Below, piece by piece: positions 3,405-30,904 of a stretch of DNA of 64,000 nt. The position numbers were made by a program, and so were the translations under genes. The notes beneath the pieces were generated by a model. It saw only the letters and a list, made by a program, of their open reading frames with translations, searched no databases and had not been told where the DNA came from. The DNA lies in the NCBI GenBank assembly GCA_965206595.1, contig OZ242214.1:3648001-3712000 (forward strand). Direction: 5' to 3'. Numbering within the stretch: position 1 is the first letter of the stretch; the number at the start of each line of letters is the position of its first letter. The DNA comes from Candidatus Latescibacterota bacterium (lineage in GTDB: Bacteria > Latescibacterota > UBA2968 > UBA8231).

Positions 3405-3600
3405 GGCTTGACTGCCCGGCCCCGGACATCCGGGCGGACCGGACTCGCTCCAGTTCCTGCGCACAGCCCCCTGCTCCTTCCCCTGCTGACCGCCGGCAGG
3501 CATCCTACCGGCACGGACCCACAAAAATCTGCTGAGCGGAGGTCGGCGGGGGCATGTTATCTTTGGCAGTGGTCTGGAGAGCATCCCGCTTCCGTCCCTG

Positions 3601-6600
3601 ATGAAATCATCCTTCCCTGAAAACAGGCTCGTATTCCTGATGCACCGCGCCGCGGCGCGCGCCTTGCAGGCCGCCCTGTTATGGTCCGCTCTGTCTGTCC
3701 CCCCGGCATGGACGCAGAAGCTGCAGGATTCCCAGCTCGAGCTGCCGGGGGTGTGGGCCGGCCAGGCCGCCTGGGGAGACTACGACGGCGACGGCGACCC
3801 GGATCTTCTCCTCGTCGGCGAAACCGAGTCGGGCGGACAGTGCCTGAGGATCGCCCGGGTACTTCGCAACGACGCCGGGCTCCTCACAGAGGACGTCGCC
3901 CAGTCGCAGCGGCTGGTCGGGGTCTATTTCGGAGACGCCGGGTGGGCGGACTACGATGGGGACGGCGATCTCGATGCCGCCATCGCCGGCTGGGATGCGG
4001 ACGATCTCGGCAGTCTGCGGCTCTACATCAATGGCGCCGGCCCGGAGGAGGGTGAGCGTCTGCTGACCCCGGACATGACCCAGGTGGACGACGCAGGGAA
4101 CTCGAATTTCCGGGCTATCCGATACGCCGATCTCTCCTGGACCGACTTCGATCGCGACGGCGACCTCGACCTCACCGTAACCGGACTGGAAGGCAACGGC
4201 ACATCCCTCACCCACCTGTATCGGAACCGCGGCGGCCTGCTGGTCCTCGACGAGGCCAACAGCGAAGCCCTCGTCAACGTGCACAACGGCGACCTCGCCT
4301 GGGCGGACTACGACAACGACGGCGACCTCGACCTCGCCCTGTCCGGGGAGAACGTCATCTCCGACAACGTCACCCGCATCACCGAGTTCTACAGGAACGA
4401 TCCCATCGGCAACCTCGAGCTCGATGTCAGCGTTGCGGCGGCGCCCCGGGCCAAGGGAGGATCGCTGGCCTGGGCCGACTACGACAACGACGGCAACCTC
4501 GACCTGGCGCTTTCCGGCCGCGGCGATTCGTGGGCAGTGAAGCTGCTGCTGTACCGCAACCGGCCGGCGGGCACCCTCGGGCTCGACGACGGGTTTTCCC
4601 TCAATCCTTTCCAGACCATCGATGGGCAGCTCGCCTGGGTCGACTACGACAACGACGGCGACCAGGACCTCGCCGTGTCCGGCCGCACCCTGCTATCCGA
4701 CCACCGCGCCCAGGTGTTCGACAACGACGGCGGAACGGTCACCTCCGGGGCGGTCGAGAACCTCGAGGGCCTCGCCGGCGGCGCCGCAGTATGGGGCGAT
4801 TACGACGGCGACGGCCGCGTCGACCTGCTGCTGAGCGGGATCGATCAGTCGGGGGCCCGCCGCACCGTTATCTACGGCAACCGCGGCGTTGCCACCCCCA
4901 ACCGCGAGCCTTCCGCTCCGGCAACGCTCCACCTGGTACAGGTTACCAGCACCCGCGCCCTGTTCAGCTGGCCGGCGGGTGAAGACGTCGAGTCGCCGGC
5001 ACTTTCCTACAACCTCCGCATCGGTACCCGGCAGGCTGGCGGCGACGTTCTCTCCGCCAGCCTGCCGCCGGGACCGGGCAACGCCGGCCTCAGGACCAGT
5101 TACGTCCTCGAGCGCTCGCTGCCCCCGAACCGCTATTACTGGTCCGTGCAGGCGGTCGATGGAGGATTCGCGCGCTCGCCGTTCTCCACCGAGGGCAGCT
5201 TTGTCGTCGAGGAGCTCGTCTCGTCGGACCAGAGTCTGCGCAATCTCGAGGAAGCATCGATGTCCTGGGGGGACATCGACGACGACGGGGACGCCGACCT
5301 CGCCGTCATGGGCAGAAACCGCAGCGGCGAAGCCCGCACCTTGATCTACGTCAACGAAGCCGGCGAGCTAGGGCTGAACCTCGGGGCGGGAGTCACTCCG
5401 CTGCGCAACGGCGACCTGGCCTGGGGGGATTACGACAACGACGGCGACCTCGATCTCGCCGTCACGGGCCAGGACGGTTTCGGGACCCCCCACAGCGAGC
5501 TGTTCGCTACCGAGGTGCACGGAGGCGAGGTGAGTTTCGAGCGCGCCGGGGCCTTCCCGGATCTCTCTCTCAGCTCCGTCGAATGGGGAGACGCCGACGC
5601 CGACGGCGACCTCGACCTAGTGTTGATGGGGCTGGGCAGCGACGTCGACGGCGCGACCCGGTCACACACGCAGCTGTGGCTCAACGACGGCGAAGGCGGC
5701 TTCGCCGAGGCGCAGAAAGACCTCGTCGGATTGCACGACGGCGAGGCGGCCTGGGCGGACGCGGACGGCGACGGCGATTCCGACCTCGCCGTGACCGGAA
5801 CCAGCTCCGCCGGTACCCCAGAGCTGCGGCTCTACCTCAACGACGGCTCCGGTCCGGGAACAGGCCTGCTGTCCCTGACCGGCCTCGAGTCGAGCGACCT
5901 TGCCTGGGGGGACTGGGACCGCGACGGCGACCCCGACCTGCTCGCTTCCGGGACCGGGGATGGCGGGATGGCGACGACGCTCTGGGAAAACGACGGCGGC
6001 AGCTTCACCGAGGCCGCGGACGCGGGGCTCCCCGGCATTAGCGACGGCGACCTCGCCTGGGGGGACTACGACAACGACCAGGACCTCGACATCGCCATCA
6101 CCGGCAACGACGGATCGCAGGCGATCCTGCAGATATGGGAGAACACCATCGGCCGCACCGGCGCCGGAGGGCCGTTCGAGCAGGTCGCCCTGGAGGCGCT
6201 CCATGGTGTTCAACTCAGCGCCGCGGCCTTCGCCGATATCGAGGAAGACGGCGACCTCGACCTGGTCTCCGCCGGCCGCGGTGCCACCGGCTCCCCCCTG
6301 AGCGCCATCAACGAGAACCTCACTGCCCGGTTCAACCCCAACTTCCCCCCGCGCAACCCATCCGGGCTCGAGGCGGACGACCTCACCGGCGGGGTCGTCC
6401 TGAGCTGGCAGGTCTCCGGGGATGACGGCGCCCCTCCACCGGAGAGCCTGACCTACAACCTGCGGGTCGGGGTCACCTCGCGGGGTAACGAGGTGATTTC
6501 CGGCCTCGGGGAGGTGGGACCCGGAAACAACGGTCACCTGACCGAGCGCACCCTCGTCGGCCTTGAAAGCGGCACCTACTTCTGGTCGGTACAGGCGGTG

Positions 6601-9600
6601 GACGCCGGATTCGCCCGTTCCGGGTGGAGCCCCGAGCGACGATTCGTAATGGATGCCATGCCCCCCGTTCTCGGCGCTCACAGTACCAGCCGGGAGTTGG
6701 TGGGTCTGGATCAAACCATCACCCTGGCCCTGGAATTCACTGACGAGCACTCCGGTATCGATGCCTCGACGGCGCCCACCGTGCAGGCCGCGGTCGGCTC
6801 GGTCACCCTCGACTTCGAGCAGGTGCAGTTCACCGGGGGCACCTGGAGCGGCGAGTTGACGATCGCCGCGGGCGTGCCCTCCGGCACGGCGACGATCTCC
6901 GTGCGCGGAGTGCTGGACGGCAAGGGGAACGAGTTGATCCCCGTAGACCTCGCCGGTGCGTTCGAGGTAGACGCCGTTGCCCCCGAGGCCGTCGCCTTCG
7001 AACCGGCCTCCGGGGCCGGGGAGGTTCCGGTTTCCACTTCCGTGCTGATGGTCCGGTTCTCCGAGCCGATCGACGAGGCGACCGTAGATGAACGGAGTTT
7101 TTCACTCCGCTCGGGCGAGTCGGCAACGACGCCCCTGGCGGTCACGTACGACCCGGAGACCCACGTCGCCGTGCTGACCCCGGAGGGTGGCCTGCTTCCG
7201 GGTACGCTGTACACGGTCAAGGCCTCCGCTTCCGTTCGGGACCTGGCCGGCAACCGGCTCGCCGACACCATGAGCTGGAGCTTCAGCACGGCGGTGCCTC
7301 AGTTGCTGGAGACCAGCCCTGCCGACGGGGCCGAGGGCGTCGATCCCGCCACGGAAAGCATCGTCGCCGTCTTCGACGGCCCGCTGACGGCCGGCGCCCT
7401 CGACGCGCCCGGAGCGGTGCAGGTCCTGCGCGAGGGGGAGCCCCTCGACCTCGCCGAAGCGCCGATCTTCGACCCCGACAGCAACTCCCTTTCCATTGCA
7501 CTCGCGAGGGGCCTCGAGCCCGGAAGCCGCTACGAGGTCAACCTCGACGGCTCTCTCGCAGGTCCGCTGCGCCTGCTCGGCCAGGGAGACTTCCGCTGGA
7601 GCTTCACCACCGCGGCGCCACAGTTGCTGGAGACCAGCCCTGCCGACGGGGCCGAGGGCGTCGATCCCGCCACGGAGCGGATTACCGCCGTCTTCGACGG
7701 CCCCCTGGCCGCCAGCGCCCTCGATGCACCCGGAACGGTGCAGGTCCTGCGCGGAGAAGACCCGCTCGACCTGGCCGAGACACCGCTTTTCGACGCCGGG
7801 AGCAACTCCCTCTCCTTCGCCGTCGCCGGGGGTCTCCTCCCGGCAAGCCGCTACGAAGTCATCCTCGACGGCTCTCTCGCAGGTCCGCTGCGCCTGCTCG
7901 GCCAAGGAGACTTCCGCTGGAGCTTCACGACCGCGGCGCCACAGCTGCTGGAGACCCGTCCGACCGACGGGGAAACAGGCGTCGGTGTCGACCTCGCCGA
8001 AGCGACCGTGACCTTCAGTGTCTCCCTCGACCCTGACCAGATTACCGGCGACAACTTCCGGCTCCTGCGGGAAGGAGAGCCGGTAGCGCTTCGCTCCGGG
8101 GACCCGGCCGAACGCGATCCCGGCACCTATGCGCTGGCCCCCGAGACAGGGTGGCAGGTCGGCAGCTCCTACAGCGTCGAGATCGCCGCGGACGTCACCG
8201 GACAGCTGTCCAGTAGCGGGCCGATCTCGTGGAATTTCCAGACCGCAGTCCCGGTGGCGACCGAGCTCGCTCCGGCAGCCGGCGACGAAGCCGTTGCCAC
8301 CTCCACCCACGAGATAACGGCGGTGTTCGACTACCCGATCGACGAGACCGCCCTTGGCGCCGAGGGGGGGGGGCGCCTGCTTCTGGAGGGAAGCCCGGAG
8401 GCACTCGAGGAGCCTTCCTGGGACCCCGGCTCGCGAACGGTGACCCTTACCCCTGCGGCGGGGGGCCTCAGGGCGGGCTCGGCCTACACGGTGATCCTGT
8501 CCGCGGCCATCGCCGGACCGCGGGCCGGCGCGGAGACGCGCTGGAGCTTCAGCACGGTCGTCCCGTCTGTGGCCTCGACCGATCCCGCGGACGGCGCTTC
8601 GATCGCCGCGGGGCGCCGCCGCGTCGAGATCCTGTTCACCGCCCCGATCGACGCCGGCCTGGTGATGAATTCGAACAACTTCCGCCTCAGCAGGTCGGGT
8701 CAGCCGCTGCAGCTCGACGACGGGGACTTCCTCTACGACGAGGCGGCCAACAAGGTCAGCCTGCCCGAGGTCGACTTCCTCTCCGGCAGCTCCTACGAGG
8801 CCGCGGTCCTGCCCCGGGTGCGCGGGCCGCGCGGCGCCGACGCCGGGCCGTTCACCTGGAGCTTCAACACCGACCTGCCCGCGGTGGTGGCGACGTCGCC
8901 GCAGGCCGATGCTGAAGGGGTGTCGATAACCACCCAGGAGATCCGCATCGAGTTCTCGCTTCCGGTTGCGGTGCGGGACGGACGCGGGTTCACCCTGCTG
9001 GCGCGACAGCTCGAAGAGGTGCCTGAGGACGAAGAGACGGGGTTCGAGGTGACGGCTATTTCCGGCTTCGCCATCGACTCCGGTTTCAAGGTGGTCAGCT
9101 TCGCGCCTCGGGGAGGGCTGCGGCCGTTCACGGAATACCGGGTCAGCGTCGGCCCCGAAGTGTTCGGCGAGCTCGCCGACCGCGGCTTCGAGTTCGCATT
9201 TCGCACCGCCCCGCGGCTGACCGAGACGGCCAGCGGCGGCCTGCTCGCGACCGCGGACCGCAGGCTCGAGCTCTACCTGCCCCCCAACGCCCTCGCCGGC
9301 GGCAGCGGTGAGATCGCCATCCGGACGCGGCCGGATGACCGCGCCGAGGACGCCCGTTCCCCGGACCTCACCCCTGTCGGGCCGGCCTTCGAAATCGACG
9401 CCGGCGACGGGGTTCTGCGCAAACCCGGGACCCTGACCCTGCGCTACGAAGCCGGCGATGTCGAGGGACGCGACACCTCGCGCCTGGCGATCTTCCGCCT
9501 CGTCGACGGCGAATGGAGGCGAGTCGGCGGCACCTCCGCCCCGGCCGAGCGGGAAGTGCGGACCGCGGTCGAGGATTTCGGGACCTACGGCATCTTCGAA

Positions 9601-9933
9601 GACCTCACCGCGACTGCCGGCGCCGCGGCCATCGACGGCATCGACTGCCAGCCCCGCGCCTTCGCCCCTGCCGGAGGAAGCGGGGCGCTGCGCGACAGGA
9701 CCGACATCTCGTTCGACCTCGCCGCGGCTGCCGACGTGAGCGTCCGCGTCTACAACGCTTCCGGGCGCCTGGAGCGTGTGATCGCCCGCGACCGCCCGCT
9801 GGCTCCCGGGCGCCAGTCGCTGACCTGGAACGGCCGGGACGAGGAGGGAAAGGTGGTCGCCAGCGGCCTCTACATCGTCGTCGTCAGCGGCGGCGACATA
9901 CAGTCGGAAAAAATCGTGGCAGTAGTGCGATGA
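3601..9933 (+). CDS. giant secreted/surface protein: two FG-GAP propeller blocks each followed by an FN3-like domain, multiple SbsA/Big-type Ig domains, ZU5-like region, C-terminal FlgD-like Ig domain
   Basis: Signal-peptide-like N-terminus; many W(G/A)DYDNDGDLDL repeats; two YWSVQAVD FN3-like motifs; repeated P.DGA.GV...WSFxT units; C-terminal VYNASGRLER...WNGRDEEG..VASGLY. Confidence 0.85.
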   Translation: MKSSFPENRLVFLMHRAAARALQAALLWSALSVPPAWTQKLQDSQLELPGVWAGQAAWGDYDGDGDPDLLLVGETESGGQCLRIARVLRNDAGLLTEDVAQSQRLVGVYFGDAGWADYDGDGDLDAAIAGWDADDLGSLRLYINGAGPEEGERLLTPDMTQVDDAGNSNFRAIRYADLSWTDFDRDGDLDLTVTGLEGNGTSLTHLYRNRGGLLVLDEANSEALVNVHNGDLAWADYDNDGDLDLALSGENVISDNVTRITEFYRNDPIGNLELDVSVAAAPRAKGGSLAWADYDNDGNLDLALSGRGDSWAVKLLLYRNRPAGTLGLDDGFSLNPFQTIDGQLAWVDYDNDGDQDLAVSGRTLLSDHRAQVFDNDGGTVTSGAVENLEGLAGGAAVWGDYDGDGRVDLLLSGIDQSGARRTVIYGNRGVATPNREPSAPATLHLVQVTSTRALFSWPAGEDVESPALSYNLRIGTRQAGGDVLSASLPPGPGNAGLRTSYVLERSLPPNRYYWSVQAVDGGFARSPFSTEGSFVVEELVSSDQSLRNLEEASMSWGDIDDDGDADLAVMGRNRSGEARTLIYVNEAGELGLNLGAGVTPLRNGDLAWGDYDNDGDLDLAVTGQDGFGTPHSELFATEVHGGEVSFERAGAFPDLSLSSVEWGDADADGDLDLVLMGLGSDVDGATRSHTQLWLNDGEGGFAEAQKDLVGLHDGEAAWADADGDGDSDLAVTGTSSAGTPELRLYLNDGSGPGTGLLSLTGLESSDLAWGDWDRDGDPDLLASGTGDGGMATTLWENDGGSFTEAADAGLPGISDGDLAWGDYDNDQDLDIAITGNDGSQAILQIWENTIGRTGAGGPFEQVALEALHGVQLSAAAFADIEEDGDLDLVSAGRGATGSPLSAINENLTARFNPNFPPRNPSGLEADDLTGGVVLSWQVSGDDGAPPPESLTYNLRVGVTSRGNEVISGLGEVGPGNNGHLTERTLVGLESGTYFWSVQAVDAGFARSGWSPERRFVMDAMPPVLGAHSTSRELVGLDQTITLALEFTDEHSGIDASTAPTVQAAVGSVTLDFEQVQFTGGTWSGELTIAAGVPSGTATISVRGVLDGKGNELIPVDLAGAFEVDAVAPEAVAFEPASGAGEVPVSTSVLMVRFSEPIDEATVDERSFSLRSGESATTPLAVTYDPETHVAVLTPEGGLLPGTLYTVKASASVRDLAGNRLADTMSWSFSTAVPQLLETSPADGAEGVDPATESIVAVFDGPLTAGALDAPGAVQVLREGEPLDLAEAPIFDPDSNSLSIALARGLEPGSRYEVNLDGSLAGPLRLLGQGDFRWSFTTAAPQLLETSPADGAEGVDPATERITAVFDGPLAASALDAPGTVQVLRGEDPLDLAETPLFDAGSNSLSFAVAGGLLPASRYEVILDGSLAGPLRLLGQGDFRWSFTTAAPQLLETRPTDGETGVGVDLAEATVTFSVSLDPDQITGDNFRLLREGEPVALRSGDPAERDPGTYALAPETGWQVGSSYSVEIAADVTGQLSSSGPISWNFQTAVPVATELAPAAGDEAVATSTHEITAVFDYPIDETALGAEGGGRLLLEGSPEALEEPSWDPGSRTVTLTPAAGGLRAGSAYTVILSAAIAGPRAGAETRWSFSTVVPSVASTDPADGASIAAGRRRVEILFTAPIDAGLVMNSNNFRLSRSGQPLQLDDGDFLYDEAANKVSLPEVDFLSGSSYEAAVLPRVRGPRGADAGPFTWSFNTDLPAVVATSPQADAEGVSITTQEIRIEFSLPVAVRDGRGFTLLARQLEEVPEDEETGFEVTAISGFAIDSGFKVVSFAPRGGLRPFTEYRVSVGPEVFGELADRGFEFAFRTAPRLTETASGGLLATADRRLELYLPPNALAGGSGEIAIRTRPDDRAEDARSPDLTPVGPAFEIDAGDGVLRKPGTLTLRYEAGDVEGRDTSRLAIFRLVDGEWRRVGGTSAPAEREVRTAVEDFGTYGIFEDLTATAGAAAIDGIDCQPRAFAPAGGSGALRDRTDISFDLAAAADVSVRVYNASGRLERVIARDRPLAPGRQSLTWNGRDEEGKVVASGLYIVVVSGGDIQSEKIVAVVR
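7274..7956 (+). repeat. intragenic tandem duplication, 321-bp period (107-aa Ig domain)
   Basis: CAG(T/C)TGCTGGAGACC starts at 7300, 7621 and 7942; long identical stretches such as CTCGACGGCTCTCTCGCAGGTCCGCTGCGCCTGCTCGGCCA. Confidence 0.9.
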
Positions 9934-11366
9934 GGGTGGCCCGGGGGATCCTAGCGGCGCTCTTGATGGCGGCGGCGGCGGCCGCATCGGGGCAGACCTT
10001 CACCAACGTCACCGAAGCGAGCGGCGCCGCAGTCGGCCTCCACGGTACGGCAGGGGCCTGGGGAGATTTCGACGGCGACGGCGATCTCGACCTCTACGTC
10101 GCCAACCGCGGGGCCGCCAACGCCCTGCTGGCGAACAACGGCGACGACACCTTCGCAGACGTCGCCGCGGCTGCCGGGGTCGACGAGGACGGCGACAGCG
10201 TCGCGGCCGCCTGGGGAGATTTTGACAACGACGGCGACCTCGACCTCTACATCGCCGACTTCTTCGCCCAGGACTTCCTCTACGAGAACTCCGGCGGCAG
10301 CTTCTCCGAGGTCGGCAGGGCCCGCGCAATGGTCGACCTCACCAGGCACGGGAGCGTGACCTCGGCGGCCTGGGGGGACTACGACAGCGACGGGTACCTC
10401 GACCTCTACATCGGCAAGTTCTACCACGCCAACGAGCTCTACCGCAACGACGCCGGCAGCCTGGAGCCGACCATCGGCCTGGGGACCGGGGACCAGCGCG
10501 ACACCGGCGGGCTGACCTGGGTCGACTACGACAACGACGGCGACCTCGACCTCTACACCGTCAACCGCGAGCAGGAGAACGGCCTCTTCCGCAACGATCT
10601 CGACGCCGGCGGCGACTTCGAGGCGATCGCCTGCGCGGCGACGGTGGACAACACCGAGATCGGCCAGGCCGGCGCCTGGGGGGATTTCGACAACGACGGC
10701 GACCTCGACTTGCACCTCGCCAACGTCGGCGCCAACAACCTGTACCGAAACGACGGGGAGGACCGATTCAGCGACATCGCCGCCGCCGCCGGGGTGCGCA
10801 GCAGCGGCTCCGGATTCCTCACCGCCATGTCGGCATGGCTCGACTTCAACGGCGACGGCCACCTCGACCTCTTCCTCGCCAACGGCGCCGAGCTGGAGCT
10901 GCCCGATGTGCTCTTCGCCAACAACGGAGACGACACCTTCCGCGACGCCACCGCCGAAGCCGGACTGCCGACCACAGGCTCCTCCCACCTGTCGGCCAGC
11001 CGGGGGGACATCGACGGCGACGGGGCTCCCGATCTCTACCTCACCAACGGCGCCGCCCTGGGGAACCGCCTCTTCCGGAACGCCACCGGAGGCTCTGCCT
11101 TCATCAAGGTGCACGTGCGCGGCAAGGGCCCAGGCGCCGGCGGCAACAACTTCTTCGGACTCGGGGCGCAGGTCCGCCTTTTCGACGCCGTCACCGACAC
11201 GCTGGTCTCCTTCACCCAGATGCTGTCCGGCCCCGGGGCTCCGGAGGTGATCTTCGGAGCCCCTGCAGGGCCCTACAACGTCCAGGTCCGGTTCCCGGGA
11301 AACGAGATCCCGATGATCGTCGGCAACGTGCGCGGCGGCGACAGCATCACCATCGAGGAGCCATAG
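9930..11366 (+). CDS. CRTAC1/FG-GAP (VCBS-like) repeat secreted protein
   Basis: ATGA overlap with the upstream stop; signal peptide; WGDFDNDGDLDLY repeats; ASPIC/UnbV-like tail (GLGAQVR...VRFP). Confidence 0.85.
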   Translation: MRVARGILAALLMAAAAAASGQTFTNVTEASGAAVGLHGTAGAWGDFDGDGDLDLYVANRGAANALLANNGDDTFADVAAAAGVDEDGDSVAAAWGDFDNDGDLDLYIADFFAQDFLYENSGGSFSEVGRARAMVDLTRHGSVTSAAWGDYDSDGYLDLYIGKFYHANELYRNDAGSLEPTIGLGTGDQRDTGGLTWVDYDNDGDLDLYTVNREQENGLFRNDLDAGGDFEAIACAATVDNTEIGQAGAWGDFDNDGDLDLHLANVGANNLYRNDGEDRFSDIAAAAGVRSSGSGFLTAMSAWLDFNGDGHLDLFLANGAELELPDVLFANNGDDTFRDATAEAGLPTTGSSHLSASRGDIDGDGAPDLYLTNGAALGNRLFRNATGGSAFIKVHVRGKGPGAGGNNFFGLGAQVRLFDAVTDTLVSFTQMLSGPGAPEVIFGAPAGPYNVQVRFPGNEIPMIVGNVRGGDSITIEEP

Positions 11367-13750
11367 TGGCCGCGGCAACGACATCGTCAGGGCGGCTGGC
11401 TGCCGCGGCCGCGGCTCTCTGCCTGTTGTGCGCCCCCCTGTACGGGGCGGCATCCAGGCAGCCGGACATCGGGGTGCGCGCCATTTCCATGGGCGGCGCC
11501 TTCGTCGCCGCGGCCAGCGACGCCACCGCGATCCACTGGAACCCCGCGGCCATCGCCACCCTGCAGCGCCAGCAGGTCCGGCTCTCCTATGCCGACCGCT
11601 TCGGTCTGGATCTGCGCGAATCCTACTTGTCGTACGTGCTGCCCCTCACCGAGAGTCACGCCTTCGGGGCCGACTGGTTCCACCGCGGCTTCGACGACGT
11701 CGAGGGCGGTCTCGGACTCGATGCGAGCCATAACCGTTTCGGCTTCGCCTACGGGTACCGCAACGACATCGAACGGCGACGCTACATCGGCGACAGCGCC
11801 GTCGGCGTGACGGCTCGCTACATTGGCCAGAGGGCCAGCCTCGATGGCGCCACGGCGATGGACGCGAGCGGCTTCGGCTTCGACGCTGGACTGCTGGTCC
11901 CCGTGACAACGGGCCTGCGCTTCGGGCTTGCGGTCCAGGATATCGGCGGCACCGCGGTCGAACACGAGAGCGGCTTCAGGGAGGACATCATGTCCACCCA
12001 CCTGCGCCTGGGCATTGCCTACAAACCACCGCTGGGAGGACTGACGCTGGCGGCGGACCTCGACGACCACTTCCGCGCCGGGGCCGAGTACTGGATCAGC
12101 CGGCAGCTGGCGCTGCGCGCCGGCCTGAAGTCCGAGGTAGGAACCCCCGAAAGCCGCGGACAGGCGACCTCCATCAACGCGGGATTCGGCCTCAAGAACC
12201 GCTTCGTGCAGCTCGATTACGCCTACGAGAATCCCCCCGTTCTCGGCGCGACGCACTACGTCTCCGTGGCCCTGGAGTACGACCCGGACGCCGTCAGCAT
12301 CAAGGAGGCGAGCATTCGTCCGAGACCGGTCTTCCGCTCCCTGTACCAGCACTACCGGGAAACCGACTTCTTCGAGGTCGTGCTCTCGAACTCCGCCTCC
12401 GAGCCGATCACCGTCATCGTGGCGTTGGTGCTTCCCAAGGCGATGGCCGCGGCGCACACCGAGAAGATCGAGCTGCCGCCCCAGAGCACGGAGAAATACC
12501 GCTTCGAGGCGGACTTCGACGAGGAACTCTTCAACAGGCCGGAGGCCTATTTCGACAACTACGTCACCCCGGTCGTGCGGGTGCGCTACACCCGCCACGA
12601 ACAGAACTACCTGGTCGAGAAGCGGCTCGAGCGCGTCTACCTCGCCGGCAAGGGGAAGCTGAGCTGGAACGTCGAAGGGATGGCGGCAGCCTTCGTCACC
12701 CCCGCCGACATCGCCGTCGCCGCGGTGGCGCGTGGCCTGGTACAGCGCTACCGCGAACTGCTGGCCGGCAAGTTCAACACCTCAAACATCGGCATGGCCG
12801 CGGTGCTGTTCGACGCCATGGGCGCCTACGGGATCCGCTACGAGGCCGACCCCGAGACGCCGTTCGCCAACGTCTCCGAGGACCGCACCATCTTCGACAC
12901 CGTGCAGTACCCGAGCGAGCTGCTCAGCCTCCCTGAAGGGGGCGGAGACTGCGACGACCTCACCCTGCTCTACGCGTCGCTGCTGGAAAACCTGGGGATC
13001 GACACCGCCTTCCTCGACACCAGGGAACCGGGCAGGGGCCGCATCTACCTGATGTTCGACAGCGGCGTGCTTCCCGAGGAGGCCGGGGATCACTTCGTCA
13101 GCCGCGCCGAATACGTCGAGTGGGAAGGCCGCATCTGGATCCCGGTGGAGACGACTTTGTTCGGATCGACCTTCAGCGAGGCCTGGAAAACGGGGGCTGC
13201 CGAGTACAAGCGGCTCAAGGTGCGCGACCTGATCTCGGAGACCTATGTGGCCAGGTGGATGCAAACCTACAAACCCGCGGTGCTGGCCCCGGTCGCCCCC
13301 GAGCTGCCCGCGCCAGCGGCCGTCTCCCGGCTGCTCTCCGGCGACACGGCCTTTTTCGACAAGCGCGCCGACCGGATCGTTCTCGGGTCGGCCTCCTCTC
13401 TCCGCCATCCAGAGGGGGCGTACGAAGCCGGCGTCGCCTACATGCGCGCCAACCACCTCGAGAAGGCGGTCCAAATGTTCGACCGCGTCCTGAGGATGGA
13501 CCCGGACCACGAGGATGCCCCCAACGCAAAGGGGGTCGCGCTGAGCAAACAGGGCCGCTACGACGAAGCGCTCGCGCTCTACCGCCAGGCACTCGAAATC
13601 GCCGACAGGCCCGCGGTACGCATGAACGTCGCCATCGCCTACTATCTCAAGGGAGAGCGGGAGACCGCCTCCATGATATTCGACGAGGTGGTGCAGCTCG
13701 ACGACTCCTACCGCGAGCTGTTCGAGTTCCTCGGAGGAGCCGGGTTTTGA
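11366..13750 (+). CDS. PorV/UPF0164-like outer-membrane barrel fused to a transglutaminase-like domain and TPRs
   Basis: GVRAISMGGAFVA..DATAIHWNPA (PorV/FadL-like N-terminus), DYAY strand, GDCDD...WIPVETT, C-terminal TPRs; GTG start overlaps the upstream TAG. Confidence 0.8.
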   Translation: MAAATTSSGRLAAAAAALCLLCAPLYGAASRQPDIGVRAISMGGAFVAAASDATAIHWNPAAIATLQRQQVRLSYADRFGLDLRESYLSYVLPLTESHAFGADWFHRGFDDVEGGLGLDASHNRFGFAYGYRNDIERRRYIGDSAVGVTARYIGQRASLDGATAMDASGFGFDAGLLVPVTTGLRFGLAVQDIGGTAVEHESGFREDIMSTHLRLGIAYKPPLGGLTLAADLDDHFRAGAEYWISRQLALRAGLKSEVGTPESRGQATSINAGFGLKNRFVQLDYAYENPPVLGATHYVSVALEYDPDAVSIKEASIRPRPVFRSLYQHYRETDFFEVVLSNSASEPITVIVALVLPKAMAAAHTEKIELPPQSTEKYRFEADFDEELFNRPEAYFDNYVTPVVRVRYTRHEQNYLVEKRLERVYLAGKGKLSWNVEGMAAAFVTPADIAVAAVARGLVQRYRELLAGKFNTSNIGMAAVLFDAMGAYGIRYEADPETPFANVSEDRTIFDTVQYPSELLSLPEGGGDCDDLTLLYASLLENLGIDTAFLDTREPGRGRIYLMFDSGVLPEEAGDHFVSRAEYVEWEGRIWIPVETTLFGSTFSEAWKTGAAEYKRLKVRDLISETYVARWMQTYKPAVLAPVAPELPAPAAVSRLLSGDTAFFDKRADRIVLGSASSLRHPEGAYEAGVAYMRANHLEKAVQMFDRVLRMDPDHEDAPNAKGVALSKQGRYDEALALYRQALEIADRPAVRMNVAIAYYLKGERETASMIFDEVVQLDDSYRELFEFLGGAGF

Positions 13751-13851
13751 CCGGAGGCAGTACGAAATCGCGAACTGGCGCCCCGTCCGGGGGTTGCCCG
13801 CCCCCGCCTGCAGGCCGCTTTCAGCGGCAGCCGAAAGAGAGGAAGCGAATC

Positions 13852-14376
13852 GTGAAATCCCCACCGTGGTTCTTTTGCTTCGGCCTGGCACTTCTGGCCG
13901 GGCCGGCAGCGCTCGCCGGGGAGAAGCTGCCCGCCCAGCCGTTGCCCCCGGCGGTCTCCGGGACGTTGAGTATCGACGAGGAATGGCTCCACGCTGTCTG
14001 GACCCAGGTCGACGAGATGGTGAAGGAGGAACGCAGGCGGAAAAAAACGGTCTCGAGCGCGGGTGTGCCCCCGGCCAGGCAGAAGATCGGTCTTCTCGAC
14101 AGGCTGTATTTCCGGGGAGGGAAGCGCTACCCGGAGCGGGAAAAGATACGCCAGGCGATCGCCGTCCTCGAGGAGGCAGCCGCGGGAAATCCGAAGGGCG
14201 AGGGCGCCCCGAGGCGGATATACCTCATCGCCCAGTGCTACCAGAAACTGGGCGGACTGGTCGAGGCAAACGGCCTCTACACCCGGCTGACCCGGGATCA
14301 CGCCGGAACTCCCTGGGCCGCCAGGGCGTCCAGAGCACTGGCGAAGCTGGCCGAAGCGGGCAGCACGATCAGGTAG
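13852..14376 (+). CDS. exported hypothetical protein with a C-terminal TPR-like pair
   Basis: GTG start after GAGAGGA; signal peptide; YLIAQCY...Y.RL..DHAGTPWA. Confidence 0.65.
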   Translation: MKSPPWFFCFGLALLAGPAALAGEKLPAQPLPPAVSGTLSIDEEWLHAVWTQVDEMVKEERRRKKTVSSAGVPPARQKIGLLDRLYFRGGKRYPEREKIRQAIAVLEEAAAGNPKGEGAPRRIYLIAQCYQKLGGLVEANGLYTRLTRDHAGTPWAARASRALAKLAEAGSTIR

Positions 14377-14503
14377 GCAGCGCAGCCCCGGCCTCACCAT
14401 TGCTTATATTTTTTCGAGGTTTCAACTCCGACTTCACGTAATCAGGGGCGACGATCGGGGAACGCCAGATCGAAGCCCTTCGCGTCGAAAGCACAGATAC
14501 GAG

Positions 14504-15202
14504 ATGATCAGACTCACCTGCCGGTGTCGAGCCCGGTTCTCTCTCTTCCCCTTACTCCTCGCCGTTGCCGCGCTTTGCGCCTGTGCCGCCCCGGGCAGCG
14601 AGCTGTCGCAGCGCATGGAGACTTCCGAGTCCGAAATTCGCGAGGAGATCGAAGCGCTGAAACGGGCCGCCGAGTCTTCCTACGACCGCGAAAGGGCGCT
14701 CGCCGAGCGCGTCCAGAGGCTCGAGGAGGGGTACGCGCGGATGGAGTCGGGGCCCGAGGAGCGTACGGACTACCCGGCTGCCCCCGAGCCACAACCCGCC
14801 CCGATAGTCCGGGGCAGCGAGAGCTTCGACGTCCAGGACGCCTACGACCGGGCCTACCAGCTGTACGGGGACCTCCAGTACGAAGCCGCCCTCGCCGGCT
14901 TTGGCGAAATCGTCTCGCGGGCGGCGAACAGCGAGTGGAGCGACAATGCCCGTTACTGGATGGGGGAATGCCAGTACGGCCTGGGGAAATACCGCCTGGC
15001 CCTGGCCGAATTCACCAAGGTCTTCAGCTACATGGAGACCGAGAAAGCGGACGACGCCCAGCTCAAGATCGCCCGCTGCTACCTTGCCCTCGGGGAGAAG
15101 GAGAACGCCCTGAGCGCCATCCGGAAACTCCTGGACGAATACCCGGACAGTGAGTACATCGGGGCTGCCCGCAAGGAAATGAGGTACCTCGAGGGCCCGT
15201 GA
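14504..15202 (+). CDS. CpoB/YbgF-like TPR lipoprotein
   Basis: Lipobox-like LCAC, coiled coil, then Y..A...NARYWMGE...DAQLKIA...YPDS. Confidence 0.8.
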   Translation: MIRLTCRCRARFSLFPLLLAVAALCACAAPGSELSQRMETSESEIREEIEALKRAAESSYDRERALAERVQRLEEGYARMESGPEERTDYPAAPEPQPAPIVRGSESFDVQDAYDRAYQLYGDLQYEAALAGFGEIVSRAANSEWSDNARYWMGECQYGLGKYRLALAEFTKVFSYMETEKADDAQLKIARCYLALGEKENALSAIRKLLDEYPDSEYIGAARKEMRYLEGP

Positions 15203-15819
15203 ACATCGCATCACTCCTGTTGATGGCGGGAGCCTGGGTAGTCGCTCCGGGCCTCGATTACGCCGAGGCGACTTACATTCCCACCAACATCGATCTGACG
15301 GTCCGGGCGACCGAGGTAGCCGTGGCCGAATGCCTGGCCGGGCTCGACTCGCTTCACTCGGAGACCGACTGGGAACTCCCTGTCCTGGTGACGGCGCAGT
15401 CGGAACACGACGCCAACTGGGTCGTGGAGCACTGCCTGACAGGAGGACTACTGAAGCGGAACTTCACGGTCGCCGTCGACACCTCGGGCGCGGCTCCGGA
15501 ATCCCCCCGTCTGGCCTACCGGATCGTCGACCTCGGCCTATCGGGCTGGTCCGGCCTGCGCGGCGGCGAGGTCAAGCGCCGCTGCCGGATGACCCTCCGC
15601 CTGCGCCTGGTCTCCGCCGGGGAGCTGGTCTGGCAGCACGAAGCGACCTCCCAGATTCGCGACGGCATACCGAAGAACCGGCTGGAAGTGGTGGAAAACG
15701 AAACCTACGATTTCGCCGATCTGGAGCTCGAGGAGCGCAGCTGGGGCCGTTTCGTCGAACCTGCCATCGTCTCCAGCGTGCTCGGCACCCTCGTCTACCT
15801 GTTCTACTCCAACCGCTGA
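15199..15819 (+). CDS. hypothetical exported protein with a C-terminal membrane anchor
   Basis: GTGA overlap; C-terminal EPAIVSSVLGTLVYLFYSNR. Confidence 0.7.
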   Translation: MNIASLLLMAGAWVVAPGLDYAEATYIPTNIDLTVRATEVAVAECLAGLDSLHSETDWELPVLVTAQSEHDANWVVEHCLTGGLLKRNFTVAVDTSGAAPESPRLAYRIVDLGLSGWSGLRGGEVKRRCRMTLRLRLVSAGELVWQHEATSQIRDGIPKNRLEVVENETYDFADLELEERSWGRFVEPAIVSSVLGTLVYLFYSNR

Positions 15820-15863
15820 TGGGGCTCCGACCTTCCCAGCCGCAGAGCCGCCGACGCGGAGTC

Positions 15864-16616
15864 ATGCCGTTCTTCCGTGTTGCCGCCCTTGCGGCCCTTC
15901 TGCTCTCGGGCTGCGCGGGTAAGAAGGAGGAACCGCTGAAGGGAGTCGAATACTACCACCAGGAGGGCATGCAGTCCCTCGAGCGCAAGCGCTACCTGCG
16001 GGCGGTCGAGATGTTCCAGCGGGTGGTCAGCAACTTCCCCGGCTCAGCCCTCATAGCCGAGGCCCAGTTCCACTTGGCCGAGGCCTACTTCGGCATGGAG
16101 GACTTCGTCAACGCCGTCTTCGAGTACCAGCGGCTGGTCGAATCCTACCCGCACAGCAGCTACGTCGACCGCGCCCAGTTCCAGATCGGCGAGTCGCACT
16201 TCATGCAGATGCGCAGCCCGGAGCACGATCAGAAGGAGACCTACGAGGCGCTGACGCATTACCGCCGTTTCATCGAGGACAACCCGCAGAGCCCGCTGCT
16301 GGAAGAGGCCCGTAGTCGCATCGTTTCCTGCCGCTCGCAGCTGGCGAAGAAGCAGTACCTGGCAGGCCGATTTTACCAGAAGCAGGACTATCTCGAGGCC
16401 GCGCGCATCTGCTATGAGGACCTCCTGATCGCCTATCCGGACACGCGCTGGTACTACTGGGGCAAAGCGATGCTCGGCGACATGGACCGCGGCGACGGGG
16501 ATCTCGAGTCGGCGCGCTTGCATTGGAGCGAGGTCGTCGAGCAGTGCCAGGAGGAGGAGCTTCGGCGCAAGGTCGAGAAATGGCTGGAGGAGGTCGGCGA
16601 CGCCGTCGTTGAGTGA
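15864..16616 (+). CDS. bamD: outer membrane protein assembly factor BamD
   Basis: Lipobox LSGC; TPRs with F.RV..NFPGS, AQF.LAEAY, YPHS, DQKETYEA, G.FY, YPDT; alternative ATG at 15819. Confidence 0.85.
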   Translation: MPFFRVAALAALLLSGCAGKKEEPLKGVEYYHQEGMQSLERKRYLRAVEMFQRVVSNFPGSALIAEAQFHLAEAYFGMEDFVNAVFEYQRLVESYPHSSYVDRAQFQIGESHFMQMRSPEHDQKETYEALTHYRRFIEDNPQSPLLEEARSRIVSCRSQLAKKQYLAGRFYQKQDYLEAARICYEDLLIAYPDTRWYYWGKAMLGDMDRGDGDLESARLHWSEVVEQCQEEELRRKVEKWLEEVGDAVVE

Positions 16617-16619
16617 ATC

Positions 16620-17201
16620 GTGCCGCGCCTCGGAATGATGGGCGGGACCTTCGACCCGATTCACACCGGCCACCTGCTGCTGGCGCAGTTCCTGAGAGAA
16701 CATCTCCTTCTCGACCGGGTGCTTTTCGTTCCCTCTGCGGACCCGCCCCACAAGGAGAACCGGGACGGTGGCCTGCTTGCGGTTGAAGACCGGTGGGCGA
16801 TGGTCTCCGCCGCCCTTGCCAGGGCTCCGGGGTTCGAGCCCTGCCGAATCGAGATCGACCGCCCCGGAAAATCCTACACCGTCGAGACACTGAGGCAGCT
16901 TCGGCAGCAATACCCCGGCAGCGAGATGTTCCTGCTGCTCGGCGCCGACAACGTCGCCGAGCTGGACACCTGGTACGATCCGGAGGGCATCTTCGAGCTC
17001 TGCACCGTGGTCGCCGGCTCACGCCCCGGCGCTCCGTCCTCCGGTTCGCCTCTTGTCCGCCGGGTGACCCTTGTCGAAACCCCAGTGATCGACATCTCAT
17101 CCACCGGCATCCGAGAGCGCGTCCGCGGCGGGCTTTCGATCCGCTGGCTGGTTCCCGACCCGGTCGAATCCTACATACGTGCAAAAGGACTCTACCGGTG
17201 A
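16620..17201 (+). CDS. nadD: nicotinate-nucleotide adenylyltransferase
   Basis: GGTFDPIHTGH, PPHK, SYTVETL, LGAD, ISSTGIR. Confidence 0.96.
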   Translation: MPRLGMMGGTFDPIHTGHLLLAQFLREHLLLDRVLFVPSADPPHKENRDGGLLAVEDRWAMVSAALARAPGFEPCRIEIDRPGKSYTVETLRQLRQQYPGSEMFLLLGADNVAELDTWYDPEGIFELCTVVAGSRPGAPSSGSPLVRRVTLVETPVIDISSTGIRERVRGGLSIRWLVPDPVESYIRAKGLYR

Positions 17202-18428: not shown

Positions 18429-18505
18429 GCACCTATAGCTCAATTGGATAGAGCACCTGACTACGGATCAGGAGGTTGGGGGTTCGAATCCCTCTGGGTG
18501 CACCA
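18429..18505 (+). tRNA. tRNA-Arg(ACG)
   Basis: GCACCTA/TGGGTGC stem, CCTGA-CTACGGA-TCAGG anticodon arm, GGTTCGAATCC, CCA. Confidence 0.97.
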
Positions 18506-19149: not shown

Positions 19150-19571
19150 AGTTGACCCATCAATCCTCATCACCGAGGGGGAGGACAGTTTCGAGCGCCT
19201 GCCGCGCTGAGAAGCTGATGGCCGACCGGCCACTCCGCAGGGAAGGCTGTCTTGCACCGCAATGACGATCCGGCTACCCTCTTCGACACCGGCGCGCTGC
19301 GCTTTTTCGACGCCGTCCACCGGGCGGCAAGGGCAGCAATAGGGCACACAATCATCGCCGACCCAAGGCGGCCCTACACTTCGCCCACACGGTCGTGATG
19401 CACCGCCACATCCTCAAAGACCTGATTGACGCGCACGAAAACGGGCAGAGGACCATCGGCATCGTCGCCGTCACCCAGGCCTGCATCGACATCACCGAAA
19501 GTCACGATCATGGTGGTGCTTGGCTGGACATGCCGCTGGAAAATCGGGGCTTGTACGTCTTTCACGACTAA
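19150..19571 (+). pseudogene. possible degraded acyl-CoA synthetase (AMP-binding) remnant
   Basis: Fragments DDPATLF and RPKAALH resemble the ...TSGTTG.PKG.LH AMP-binding motif; no intact ORF. Confidence 0.3.
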
Positions 19572-19633
19572 GGTATTCGCGGGGATGGTCGCATCAGATA
19601 TCATCGCCAGACAAAACATACGATAGCTTTTCG

Positions 19634-21625
19634 ATGAAAGATCAGTCACAACGCGCCCAAGCCGTCTTGGAGGCATCTGAGCCGAGACAGGGCGACATGT
19701 GGTCGATTACACCCCGCGGCTTCATCGTCGGATGCCTGATGGCAGCTACTATCGCCATCGCCGTCCCCTACGGCGGCATGGTCATCCAGGGTTCCCGCCT
19801 GGGCCTGAGTGCCTGTACCCCCGCCGCCTTCTTCCTCTTCTTCGTTTTTCTGCTTACGGTTCAGGTTGTCCTTGGAGTGCTAAATCGGGCGTGGCTCCTC
19901 AAGCCGGGAGAGCTGATCGTTGTTTTCATAATGATGATGATGGCCACCGCCATCCCAACCCGTGGCGTGGTAGGCATGCTTTTGCCCATGATTACGGGCA
20001 CCTTCTACTTCGCCACGCCGGAAAACAGCTGGGCCGAGCTCATCCATCCCTTCCTGCAGGATTGGATGGTGCTTTTCGACGCGGATGCAGTCAAGGGATT
20101 TTACGAGGGCACGAGCTCCGAAATCCCATGGGGGTTGTGGGCACCACTGCTACTGAGATGGCTGCTTTTCTTCGCCGCGTTCCACCTCACCTTTCTGTGT
20201 TCCCTGGCGATTCTCAGACGCCAGTGGGTCGAGCATCAGCGCCTGGTTTTCCCTTTGGCTCAGGTCCCGCTGGCCATGATTCAGGCTGGCGAAAAAGCCG
20301 ATTCCATCATCAAGCCGTTCTTCAAGAATCCGGTAATGTGGGTCGGCTTCCTGCTCTCCTTCTGCCTGAACAGCACGAATGCATTGCATCACTACTTCGA
20401 GTCCATCCCCGCTCTCATGACCCAGTTCAGCACGGTCATCTTCCGGGACCACGTCCCGCTGAGCTTTCGCATCAACTTTCTGATGTTCGGTTTCGCCTAC
20501 TTCATCGGCTCCAACGTCTCCTTCAGCCTCTGGTTCTTCTACGTCCTCCACTTGATCCAGGTCGGCGTCTTCAACATCGTAGGCATTACCAATCCGGAGA
20601 AACTCGGGCACTGGACCGATTCGGGCCCCGTGGGCGCCATCATTGCCCATCAGATGATGGGCGCCCTCACCGTCCTCGTCCTGTTCGGTCTGTGGACCGG
20701 GCGCTCCCACATCAAAGAAGTGCTGTGGAAAGCATGGGACAAAAACGCCCCCGTCGACGATTCGCGGGAGATCATGTCCTACCGGTTCGCCGTTTTCGGG
20801 TTCCTCGTCGGGATCGGTACGATGTGGGTGTTCCTGTGGAAAACGGGTATTCCCGCCTGGATCGTACCGCTCTTCATCTTCGCAGCTCTCATTATCTGGA
20901 TCGGCTTGGCTCGAGCCGTCGCCGAGGCCGGCATTCCGACCATCACCCCAGCCATCGTGCCCGCCGGTTTTGTCATCTCCACCGTCGGCGTTCCTGCTCT
21001 GGGGATAAAGGGCATTGTCGCCACGGGAATGACACTCACCTGGGGAGGGGATCTTCTCGCCTTCATCACCGCTCCCATGGCAAATGCCATCCGTCTGGGC
21101 AGCGAAGTGACCAGGCACAGACGTGTCGTGTTCAGCGCCATGGCAACTGCCCTGCTCATCAGCTTGGTCCTCTCTGCTTGCTTCCTCGTGTACCTCGCCT
21201 ATCGGGACGGCGCACTGAATCTGCATTCCCAGTACTTCACAGGCTTTGCCCGTGCCCCCTCACAGCTGGCCGTCATGAAGCTCAACTCCCCCACCGGTCC
21301 CAACCTGGTGGGGTTGCTGTGGACAGGCGCCGGCGGCCTGATCATGGCCGCCTTGATGTTTGCCCGCCACTTATTTGTATGGTGGCCCTTCCACCCCATC
21401 GGTTTTGCCGCCAGTGCGAGCTGGGCGCTGGATGCAACTTGGCTTTCTATCTTTTTTGCCTGGCTTATCAAGGTCATCGTTCTGCAGTTCGGTGGCCCAA
21501 CCATATACGAGAAGACCAAGCCGTTTTTCATGGGAATCATCATGGGGCAGTTCGTGGTGGGCGGGTTCTGGGTGATCGTCGACGCCTTCACCGGCATGCG
21601 AGGCAACGTCATCCGGGTGTACTGA
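19634..21625 (+). CDS. polytopic membrane protein, DUF6785/DUF6784-like (putative transporter)
   Basis: Many TM helices; RRQWVEHQRLVFPLAQVP, RAVAEAG, WWPFHPIGF, PFFMGII.G motifs. Confidence 0.8.
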   Translation: MKDQSQRAQAVLEASEPRQGDMWSITPRGFIVGCLMAATIAIAVPYGGMVIQGSRLGLSACTPAAFFLFFVFLLTVQVVLGVLNRAWLLKPGELIVVFIMMMMATAIPTRGVVGMLLPMITGTFYFATPENSWAELIHPFLQDWMVLFDADAVKGFYEGTSSEIPWGLWAPLLLRWLLFFAAFHLTFLCSLAILRRQWVEHQRLVFPLAQVPLAMIQAGEKADSIIKPFFKNPVMWVGFLLSFCLNSTNALHHYFESIPALMTQFSTVIFRDHVPLSFRINFLMFGFAYFIGSNVSFSLWFFYVLHLIQVGVFNIVGITNPEKLGHWTDSGPVGAIIAHQMMGALTVLVLFGLWTGRSHIKEVLWKAWDKNAPVDDSREIMSYRFAVFGFLVGIGTMWVFLWKTGIPAWIVPLFIFAALIIWIGLARAVAEAGIPTITPAIVPAGFVISTVGVPALGIKGIVATGMTLTWGGDLLAFITAPMANAIRLGSEVTRHRRVVFSAMATALLISLVLSACFLVYLAYRDGALNLHSQYFTGFARAPSQLAVMKLNSPTGPNLVGLLWTGAGGLIMAALMFARHLFVWWPFHPIGFAASASWALDATWLSIFFAWLIKVIVLQFGGPTIYEKTKPFFMGIIMGQFVVGGFWVIVDAFTGMRGNVIRVY

Positions 21626-22354: not shown

Positions 22355-22377
22355 CGGTACTCTTGAATGGCTTGGCT

Positions 22378-24075: not shown

Positions 24076-24172
24076 AAAGCTCCTGACGCCCTCTTGACAC
24101 TCCGGCAGAGAGTGCATTACTTGCGCTTTTACAGTCACCCGCCGGAAGGGGCTCCCCGGAGGAATCCATTAA

Positions 24173-30808: not shown

Positions 30809-30846
30809 CGCCTGACGAGTAGCTGTCAGGTGCAGTGAGGAGTGGC

Positions 30847-30890: not shown

Positions 30891-30904
30891 GGCGGGAGAC
30901 GACG

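Follow-up and report, generated by a model that had tools for sequence, protein, structure and literature searches.

The locus described here lies in a 64,000-nucleotide stretch of DNA (in its entirety, the window) from a Candidatus Latescibacterota bacterium (contig OZ242214.1, positions 3,648,001 to 3,712,000 of the forward strand). At its center is a gene for a fusion protein that joins a barrel of the PorV/PorQ family to a tail comprising a β-sandwich, a transglutaminase-like domain, and tetratricopeptide repeats (TPRs). PorV (LptO) is known from the system for type IX secretion (T9SS) of Bacteroidota. The fusion gene is the last of three genes joined end to end (3601-9933, 9930-11366, and 11366-13750), the first of which encodes a giant secreted protein with a T9SS-type C-terminal domain (CTD). 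Gene context was taken from the window and from 10 kb flanks of related loci. The features concerned are listed below.

3601..9933, + strand: giant secreted protein, 2110 aa, with FG-GAP repeats, fn3, seven Big_5 immunoglobulin (Ig)-like domains, and a C-terminal T9SS-type CTD
9631..9930, + strand: CTD of the giant, predicted ligand of the barrel (aligned and conserved over 28 loci; TIGR04183 sub-threshold; co-fold)
9930..11366, + strand: FG-GAP repeat protein, 478 aa, with signal peptide, CRTAC1/ASPIC-like (FG-GAP_3, E 1.2e-49)
11366..13750, + strand: fusion gene, 794 aa (PorV/PorQ-family barrel, β-sandwich, transglutaminase-like domain, TPRs)
11366..11452, + strand: putative signal peptide, approximately residues 1-29 of the fusion protein (Arg10, a hydrophobic run, and GAAS/RQ, without a lipobox; read by eye from the translation)
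11468..12280, + strand: N-terminal plug region and 14-strand FadL/PorV-like barrel, residues 35-305 (NF033709, DSSP strands, fold matches)
12344..12655, + strand: Ig-like β-sandwich, residues 327-430 (domain model, Foldseek)
12656..13300, + strand: predicted transglutaminase/papain-like α/β domain, residues 431-645 (Pfam matches of relatives, Foldseek, Atlas cluster)
12950..12952, + strand: codon of Cys529 within GDCDD, first residue of a helix (translation, domain model)
13040..13042, + strand: codon of Arg559, at the position of the family's His (domain alignment)
13148..13150, + strand: codon of Glu595 within WIPVETT, likely third triad residue, at a strand end (domain alignment, model)
13313..13747, + strand: long helix (residues 650-675) and three TPR pairs (residues 680-790) (Pfam, AlphaFold model)

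The fusion gene starts at GTG 11366, which shares one base with the TAG stop (11364-11366) of the FG-GAP gene. GAGGAG lies 5 nt upstream of this GTG, and comparison with relatives shows that their proteins begin at the matching point. The open reading frame (ORF) listing gives the frame as open from 10835 to 13750; ATG 10835 was discarded as the start, as it implies a 530-nt overlap with the FG-GAP gene and the starts of relatives correspond to the GTG. Upstream, the ATG of the FG-GAP gene at 9930 overlaps the TGA of the giant as ATGA. These start/stop overlaps at both junctions agree with a preliminary description, made from the sequence alone, that had placed the gene behind those of a CTD-tailed giant and a CRTAC1 protein. 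Scans of 3300-16700 returned 0 promoter-like sites, and terminator-like sites did not exceed the number in shuffled sequence. The N terminus of the fusion protein can be read as a Sec signal peptide. In Pfam, the giant matched Big_5 (E 3.7e-73), FG-GAP_3 (E 4.5e-43), and FlgD_ig (33.3 bits, cutoff 27, at residues 2035-2097), and its match to the T9SS type A sorting domain of NCBIfam, TIGR04183, was below threshold (17.9 bits, cutoff 23).

A PorV/PorQ-family barrel and its predicted cargo

Residues 37-303 of the fusion protein scored 105.7 bits against NCBIfam NF033709, the PorV/PorQ family model (cutoff 90, E 3.4e-30), and all 31 aligned family members (alignment A1) matched the same model at E≤1e-5. 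The full-length AlphaFold model had a mean predicted local distance difference test (pLDDT) score of 76 and a predicted template modeling (pTM) score of 0.46. Within it, DSSP places the barrel strands over residues 70-305, and we read their number as 14. Foldseek aligned the barrel with FadL (3pgr, E 4.4e-9) and with chain F of two type 9 translocon structures, 6h3i (E 1.5e-8, template modeling [TM] score by target 0.61) and 8gl6 (E 5.7e-8, TM by target 0.56); we take chain F of both to be PorV. The best matches included FadL, TodX, and CymD, and a weak match to Toluene_X was obtained in Pfam (22.4 bits, cutoff 29.7). A search for stand-alone barrels found no close relative: there were 18 shorter matches, most of them short and often partial barrel pieces, and P0258-P0262 are barrels of ~300 aa with 24-30% identity.

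To model docking, barrel residues 31-312 (alignment A1) were co-folded with the CTD of the giant (alignment A5, 28 loci). Three runs gave values of 0.85, 0.85, and 0.83 for ipSAE, an interface score, and the best of three controls gave 0.00. Among solved complexes, 58 of 80 reach an ipSAE of 0.85, as do 2 of 110 mismatched pairs; these counts hold only roughly here, as the co-fold used its own alignments. The runs share at least 97% of their contacts, with a partner pLDDT of at least 83. In the predicted complex, the CTD touches the connections S1-S2, S3-S4, and so on to S13-S14, as well as the start of the mature chain, with contact residues around 78-83, 107-122, 155-167, 198-209, 234, 257-267, and 290-293. 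The end of the chain, past strand 14, lies outside this interface. The co-fold thus supports docking of the CTD on the loop face of the barrel, opposite the exit of the tail.

Outer-membrane barrels have an even number of strands, and their termini are periplasmic. Because of this rule, and because the tail exits the face opposite the CTD site, the tail is probably periplasmic and the CTD outside. With the tail on the opposite face, the enzyme-like domain and the docked cargo would lie on opposite sides of the outer membrane. The barrel suspected in the preliminary description was recovered by structure prediction, with the transglutaminase-like domain on what is probably the periplasmic side. 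The suspected link to the CTD-tailed neighbor likewise gained support, from synteny and from the predicted docking of the barrel with the C-terminal domain of 3601-9933.

The tail and its altered active site

Residues 304-680 of the fusion protein matched nothing above threshold in Pfam or NCBIfam. When residues 305-675 were searched against 1.84 billion cluster representatives, 2009 were retrieved at E≤0.001; of these, 1680 reached E≤1e-10 and 277 reached E≤1e-30. A domain model based on an alignment of 48 diverse members (pLDDT 95, pTM 0.93) comprises a sandwich, an α/β domain, and a long helix; Cys529 opens a helix in this model, and position 559 and Glu595 are at strand ends. Foldseek matched the model with the transglutaminases TG2 and TG3 over ~415 columns (E ~2e-4, probability 0.92), at a TM of only ~0.2. 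Shorter matches of ~120-150 columns were to complement C3 chains, ASF1, and factor XIII (~138 columns), which in our own reading of the aligned target domains, not in the tool's output, correspond to the sandwich part.

Pfam PF01841 (Transglut_core) was matched at E≤0.05 by 33 of the 48 relatives (best E 8.8e-5), with scores, where seen, of 20.5-22.9 bits, just under the cutoff of 23; PF04473 was matched by 19 of the 48. The rank-2 neighbor in the Atlas is a cluster named "Transglutaminase-like superfamily" (score 0.95), in which 58% of members carry PF01841. The domain of the fusion protein itself matched neither PF01841 nor PF04473 at E≤0.05, so the fold assignment draws on the relatives and on the model. 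With that qualification, we accept the middle domain as a predicted, distant transglutaminase/papain-like domain. The fold named in the preliminary description is supported by the profiles of relatives and the model, and not by a Pfam match of the window protein.

Among solved structures, the full-family profile matched TPRs only, and the transglutaminase-like domain of the window alone gave 0 matches at E≤10. A domain profile (A3) gave 13 matches: eight repeat-protein artifacts (designed pentatricopeptide/α-solenoid repeats), the LapG-like 4u65_E (E 0.39), and four LpxC (E 1.5-1.9). A trimmed profile (A4) gave 6 matches, all at E ~1. Homology of the domain to LapG was dropped, as 4u65_E disappeared with the trimmed profile. 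The repeats at residues 683-786 are recognized in Pfam as TPR_2 (50.1 bits, cutoff 27, E 1.6e-13) and TPR_1 (48.9 bits, cutoff 27.8), with an additional weak match to TPR_Slam (21.6 bits, cutoff 35.2). Together with the NF033709 match, the barrel model, and the domain model, the TPR_2 match bears out the order of parts that had been proposed for 11366-13750: a PorV-type barrel, a transglutaminase-like middle, and TPRs. The relatives are mostly 1000-1040 aa long (extremes 918-1274) and members of the window's clade 794-800 aa; compared with most relatives, ~220 aa of TPR is absent from the window protein and from its closest relative (locus L001). No Peptidase C25 (gingipain-like, PorU-type) domain was matched by the fusion protein in Pfam or NCBIfam.

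GDCDD occupies residues 527-531 and WIPVETT residues 591-597 (13136-13156), and the Cys codon lies at 12950-12952, exactly where the preliminary description had put it. A hidden Markov model of the domain, run on 244 stored proteins, gave 236 matches in which the window gene is counted twice (P0001 and P0002). Conservation of the two motifs across these matches is far beyond chance, with Cys in 232 and Glu in 228; the His is present in 226. At the position of Arg559, 226 of the 231 other sequences have His. Conservation across these 231 sequences reaches at least 90% in 31 columns, of which the window protein keeps 30; the sole change is His559 to Arg. It thus has Cys529, Arg559, and Glu595 in place of a complete Cys-His-Asp/Glu set. 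Only four full-length sequences have another residue in place of the His: Arg in the window protein, P0005, and P0007, and Gly in P0006, whose Glu is also replaced by Gln. Among readable genome loci, 77 of 78 have the His and the exception is L001, the 94%-identical relative; loci and protein set overlap, and the two His counts are not independent.

In a quick, midpoint-rooted tree from which P0097 was left out, the four His-less sequences form one clade (Shimodaira-Hasegawa-like approximate likelihood ratio test 100) on a long stem, sister to a His-bearing protein of 1006 aa and nested among His-bearing forms. Between the window and L001, the ratio of non-synonymous to synonymous substitution rates (dN/dS) is 0.17 overall, 0.09 in the barrel, and 0.23 in the transglutaminase-like core, the last from 14 non-synonymous and 18 synonymous changes. 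The low ratio indicates that the domain is maintained under purifying selection rather than decaying. Because His has become Arg while the other conserved residues are kept, the tail of the window protein probably serves as a binding module that is dead as a catalyst (or altered in its chemistry).

The cassette and the module in other genomes

A genome scan yielded 79 loci, most from Latescibacterota metagenome-assembled genomes (MAGs), some labeled Gemmatimonadota, plus KSB1 and unclassified bacteria. The match extends from barrel to TPR in 63 of the 79. Of the 57 barrel-to-TPR loci with at least 1.5 kb of upstream DNA, 49 have an FG-GAP gene as the immediate upstream neighbor; homologs of the giant also lie upstream in relatives, and an alignment of 28 loci shows its CTD to be conserved. 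On the other side, a gene encoding CHASE2 and a class III cyclase lies within 6 kb in 43 of the 51 barrel-to-TPR loci with at least 4 kb downstream. The cyclase of locus L003 (13842-16631), for example, has 929 aa and matches CHASE2 (E 6.9e-32) and Guanylate_cyc (E 3e-13). A small secreted TPR-like protein is kept between the barrel gene and the cyclase in most loci, and downstream genes for YbgF-like, BamD, NadD, and ThrC proteins are syntenic in closer relatives. The cassette is conserved in Latescibacterota and KSB1. Two further features belong to its downstream part in the window.

13852..14376, + strand: conserved cassette member, a small secreted protein of 174 aa that ends in a YbgF/PorW-like TPR region (supported by its frame, its GTG start, and a signal peptide)
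14377..14503, no strand: short spacer of 127 bp where relatives have a ~2.8 kb CHASE2-adenylate/guanylate cyclase gene (locus comparison)

The small protein gave weak matches to TIGR02795 and PorW/SprE. An ORF at 13794-14441 was discarded as the next downstream gene, being in the wrong frame (Arg/Gly/Pro-rich translation); the true gene is 13852-14376. Of the 40 loci with both the FG-GAP gene and sufficient downstream DNA, 38 carry the cyclase, the exceptions being L001 and L019. In the window and L001, it is cleanly missing, along with the catalytic-position His and the ~220 aa of TPR. On one Latescibacterota chromosome, two loci ~38 kb apart (L065 and L067) hold the barrel-sandwich part separately from the transglutaminase-TPR part; the giant and FG-GAP genes accompany the former, and the small protein and cyclase accompany the latter. 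This arrangement is either a split form or a rearrangement.

Beyond the cassette, the sandwich-transglutaminase-TPR module is found at the C terminus of proteins with Reg_prop/Y_Y_Y propellers, NHL repeats, or TPR arrays (35 representatives scanned). The barrel-less proteins that were inspected have N-terminal signal peptides and TPR ends and are without a CTD; such forms occur in Thermodesulfobacteriota (L075-L077). At paralogous loci (L071-L074), one to three Reg_prop proteins that bear FlgD_ig CTDs are encoded after a barrel fusion. An Ignavibacteriota MAG (L078) encodes a CHASE2 protein with a sigma-54 activator (3387-6254) two genes upstream of a 696-aa module-bearing protein (8552-10642), a second CHASE2 pairing with another output domain. 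The steady companions of the module are β-propeller proteins, fused or adjacent, and CHASE2 sensors.

As a separate observation, NCBIfam NF058533, "anti-phage protein ProA" (1903 positions), matches the sandwich and transglutaminase-like module at its positions 11-327. Matches were seen in L075 (8894-11407), L077 (8915-11404, E 5.7e-13), L064, L072, and L073; residues 434-549 of the window protein gave only E 0.0047. We found no literature on ProA, and PADLOC run on six family proteins returned weak TPR-type matches only.

Elsewhere in the window, three more large proteins (30842-33031, 33041-35107, and 40207-43566) have CHU_C and/or FlgD_ig C-terminal sorting-type domains. The window thus has at least four CTD-tailed proteins, and the organism therefore encodes many such proteins. 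In the region 21668-26143, genes for a Laminin_G_3 protein and a 656-aa TPR protein flank one on the minus strand (22378-24138) for a second FG-GAP protein, which ends in UnbV_ASPIC. Just past tRNA-Arg(acg) at 18429-18505, G+C drops from 0.65-0.71 (1-18 kb) to 0.50-0.61 (18-40 kb), which may mark an island boundary; the 26-28 kb bin has a G+C of 0.50, and ~26.2-28.3 kb contained no ORF in the G+C-filtered screen. An enolase-superfamily dehydratase gene in the region 1406-2318 is divided between two frames (1406-2158 and 1944-2318), and an IolD-like ORF (44853-45452) spans only profile positions 1-164 of 616; both look like broken or partial genes. A 701-aa protein at 19520-21625 consists of DUF6785 (E 7e-117) and DUF6784.

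Interpretation and relation to known systems

We propose that the fusion protein is a dedicated PorV-style dock for the CTD of the adjacent giant, with a conserved, probably non-catalytic scaffold tail in the periplasm, an account we judge about equally apt to prove right or wrong. The observations behind it are the domain identities, the conserved motifs, synteny, and the joint loss in the window's lineage. The 14-strand PorV/PorQ-family barrel would hold the T9SS-type CTD of the giant FG-GAP/Ig protein, whose gene lies two genes upstream, and the tail (sandwich, transglutaminase-like domain, and TPRs) would exit the opposite face and act as a protein-binding scaffold in the periplasm. In the window's lineage, His is exchanged for Arg and the cyclase gene and ~220 aa of TPR are gone, while the other conserved residues are retained.

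Several points weigh against this proposal. The barrel falls short of three equivalog cutoffs in its family (PorV NF033710, 47.9 of 250 bits; PorQ NF033711, 32.9 of 220; PorV2 NF052325, 57 of 325), and the middle domain of the fusion protein has no transglutaminase match of its own. The co-fold may succeed through likeness to the solved PorV-CTD complex 8gl6, in which case it would report resemblance and not binding. The periplasmic placement is inferred from DSSP strand parity and the general barrel rule, and docking, loss of catalysis, and any partner of the tail are likewise predictions from computation. The joint loss of cyclase, His, and TPR is a single evolutionary event, with gene context from two genomes (the window and L001), and L019 retains the His yet has no nearby cyclase; L023, the other copy in the same MAG, has one. 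It is also possible that the chemistry is altered rather than lost, as Cys529 and the acidic GDCDD are fully kept.

The preliminary description had taken the transglutaminase-like domain for an active Cys transpeptidase fused to the shuttle, which would cleave the CTD and attach the cargo instead of PorU. Such a role would suit a PorV-family barrel predicted to bind its neighbor's CTD, the conserved Cys-His-Glu set of the family, and the lack of a Peptidase_C25/PorU match among the window ORFs scanned. We consider it very improbable for the fusion gene because the base of the triad is missing, with Arg in place of His; because the tail exits the face opposite the predicted CTD site, setting enzyme and cargo on different sides of the membrane; because the module exists barrel-less behind Sec signal peptides and beside CHASE2 sensors; and because its steady genomic partner is a CHASE2 sensor rather than cargo-attachment genes. 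TPRs and small TPR proteins are, moreover, typical of periplasmic proteins. The fusion protein is thus unlikely to be a PorU substitute. A less drastic alternative keeps the tail as an active periplasmic cysteine enzyme despite His559Arg, working through Cys-Glu or another base and processing or cross-linking the giant or the FG-GAP protein during their transit. Retention of Cys529, GDCDD, Glu595, and 30 of 31 conserved columns would fit, as would the dN/dS of 0.23; fusion of the module to propellers elsewhere would point to propeller proteins as its partners. This reading resembles the action of the periplasmic transglutaminase-like protease LapG on the adhesin LapA in logic only, the sequence link to LapG being noise. 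His is the general base in the transglutaminase-like fold and is near-invariant elsewhere in the family, and the clade member P0006 has also lost Glu (to Gln) with Gly at the His position; on balance, we regard an active tail as rather unlikely.

Also unlikely is a role for the barrel, apart from type IX secretion, in importing a small substrate, hydrophobic or otherwise, in the manner of FadL, with a tail that receives or modifies the substrate in the periplasm and CTD-tailed neighbors that are coincidental. FadL, TodX, and CymD are among the best Foldseek matches, Toluene_X is weakly matched, and the PorV and PorQ equivalog cutoffs are unmet. The family model for PorV/PorQ is nevertheless matched by all 31 members, adjacency to CTD-bearing proteins is kept across phyla and in paralogs with another cargo type, and the CTD co-fold is strong with null controls, all of which argue against an importer. 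A broader function can be imagined for the His-bearing, five-gene cassette, as a trans-envelope device coupling the state of a surface adhesin to cyclic AMP or cyclic GMP. The integrin-like FG-GAP giant would sit on the surface with its CTD held by the PorV-like barrel, and the periplasmic Cys-His-Glu enzyme and TPR arm would act on, or report to, the periplasmic CHASE2 domain of the inner-membrane cyclase. The pairing of CHASE2 with a sigma-54 activator in L078 fits this scheme, which we hold to be doubtful.

Like PorV, the fusion barrel is FadL-like, belongs to the NF033709 family, and is predicted here to carry the CTD on its loop face as in 8gl6. It differs in falling below the PorV equivalog cutoff (47.9 of 250), in being encoded with one cargo, and in occurring in Latescibacterota; PorV serves all type A cargo, whereas the fusion barrel would serve one particular cargo. 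The fusion protein also has a C-terminal tail of ~490 aa beyond the barrel, and we know of no such tail in PorV. As docks, the closest analogies would be PorV holding PorU, PorQ holding PorZ, and PorP/SprF proteins holding neighboring cargo. Two reports describe type B CTD cargo genes that cluster with PorP/SprF genes and a proposed anchoring role for the barrels (PMC10202324, PMC12618676). The PorQ-PorZ and PorP/SprF-cargo pairs share with the cassette a cargo gene clustered with its own outer-membrane barrel gene. Unlike PorP/SprF, the fusion barrel is of the PorV/PorQ family, and the giant's CTD matches FlgD_ig (with the type A model below cutoff), not CHU_C. None of the PorQ, PorP, or SprF barrels is described with a periplasmic enzyme-like tail. 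Among the matches listed in literature searches, we found no published description of the cassette or of the barrel-tail architecture, nothing relevant on PorV with transglutaminase, and no occurrence of the term Latescibacter; on CHASE2 with transglutaminase-like and TPR domains, passages of PMC8195603 concern other systems.

The tail has its own parallels. In its predicted structure, the module resembles transglutaminase/papain-like enzymes (PF01841, PF04473; TG2, TG3, factor XIII): Cys opens a helix, and the His position and an acidic residue come later, on strands. Animal transglutaminases also have a β-sandwich ahead of the core, and profile and Foldseek matches to such enzymes recur but are weak. 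The module differs in scoring below the Pfam cutoff where scored, in having Glu as the acidic residue, and, in the window, in having Arg for His. The LapD-LapG-LapA system comprises, encoded together, a giant adhesin that the outer membrane holds, a transglutaminase-like Cys enzyme of the periplasm, and a nucleotide-signaling protein of the inner membrane. Its likeness to the cassette is one of logic only, without a significant sequence link: the nucleotide protein of the cassette is a CHASE2 class III cyclase and not a receptor for cyclic di-GMP, the window's lineage is without the cyclase, and the anchor is a PorV-type barrel predicted to bind a C-terminal domain. Slam, PgaA, and BcsC are outer-membrane barrels with periplasmic TPR arms, and Slam genes lie beside their cargo. 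Compared with these, the fusion protein is barrel-first (the reversed order), uses another barrel family, and has the extra sandwich and transglutaminase-like domain.

Nearly all knowledge of type IX-style cargo handling comes from Bacteroidota; here, a PorV-family barrel occurs in Latescibacterota and KSB1, tied to one giant cargo and bearing a large, presumably periplasmic tail. The tail family is large, with 2009 cluster representatives matched at E≤0.001, and is without a Pfam model of its own; its Cys-His-Glu set is near-invariant, and it has a recurrent link to CHASE2 sensors, for which, to our knowledge, few ligands have been described. For the window gene, Arg559 removes the main appeal of a new attachment enzyme, and the window copy is instead a natural active-site variant that is useful as a control for assays of the family. 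If the cassette does couple adhesin state to a cyclic nucleotide, the window's lineage would be a natural signaling-dead derivative, with His changed to Arg, the cyclase deleted, the TPR arm halved, and the dock kept.

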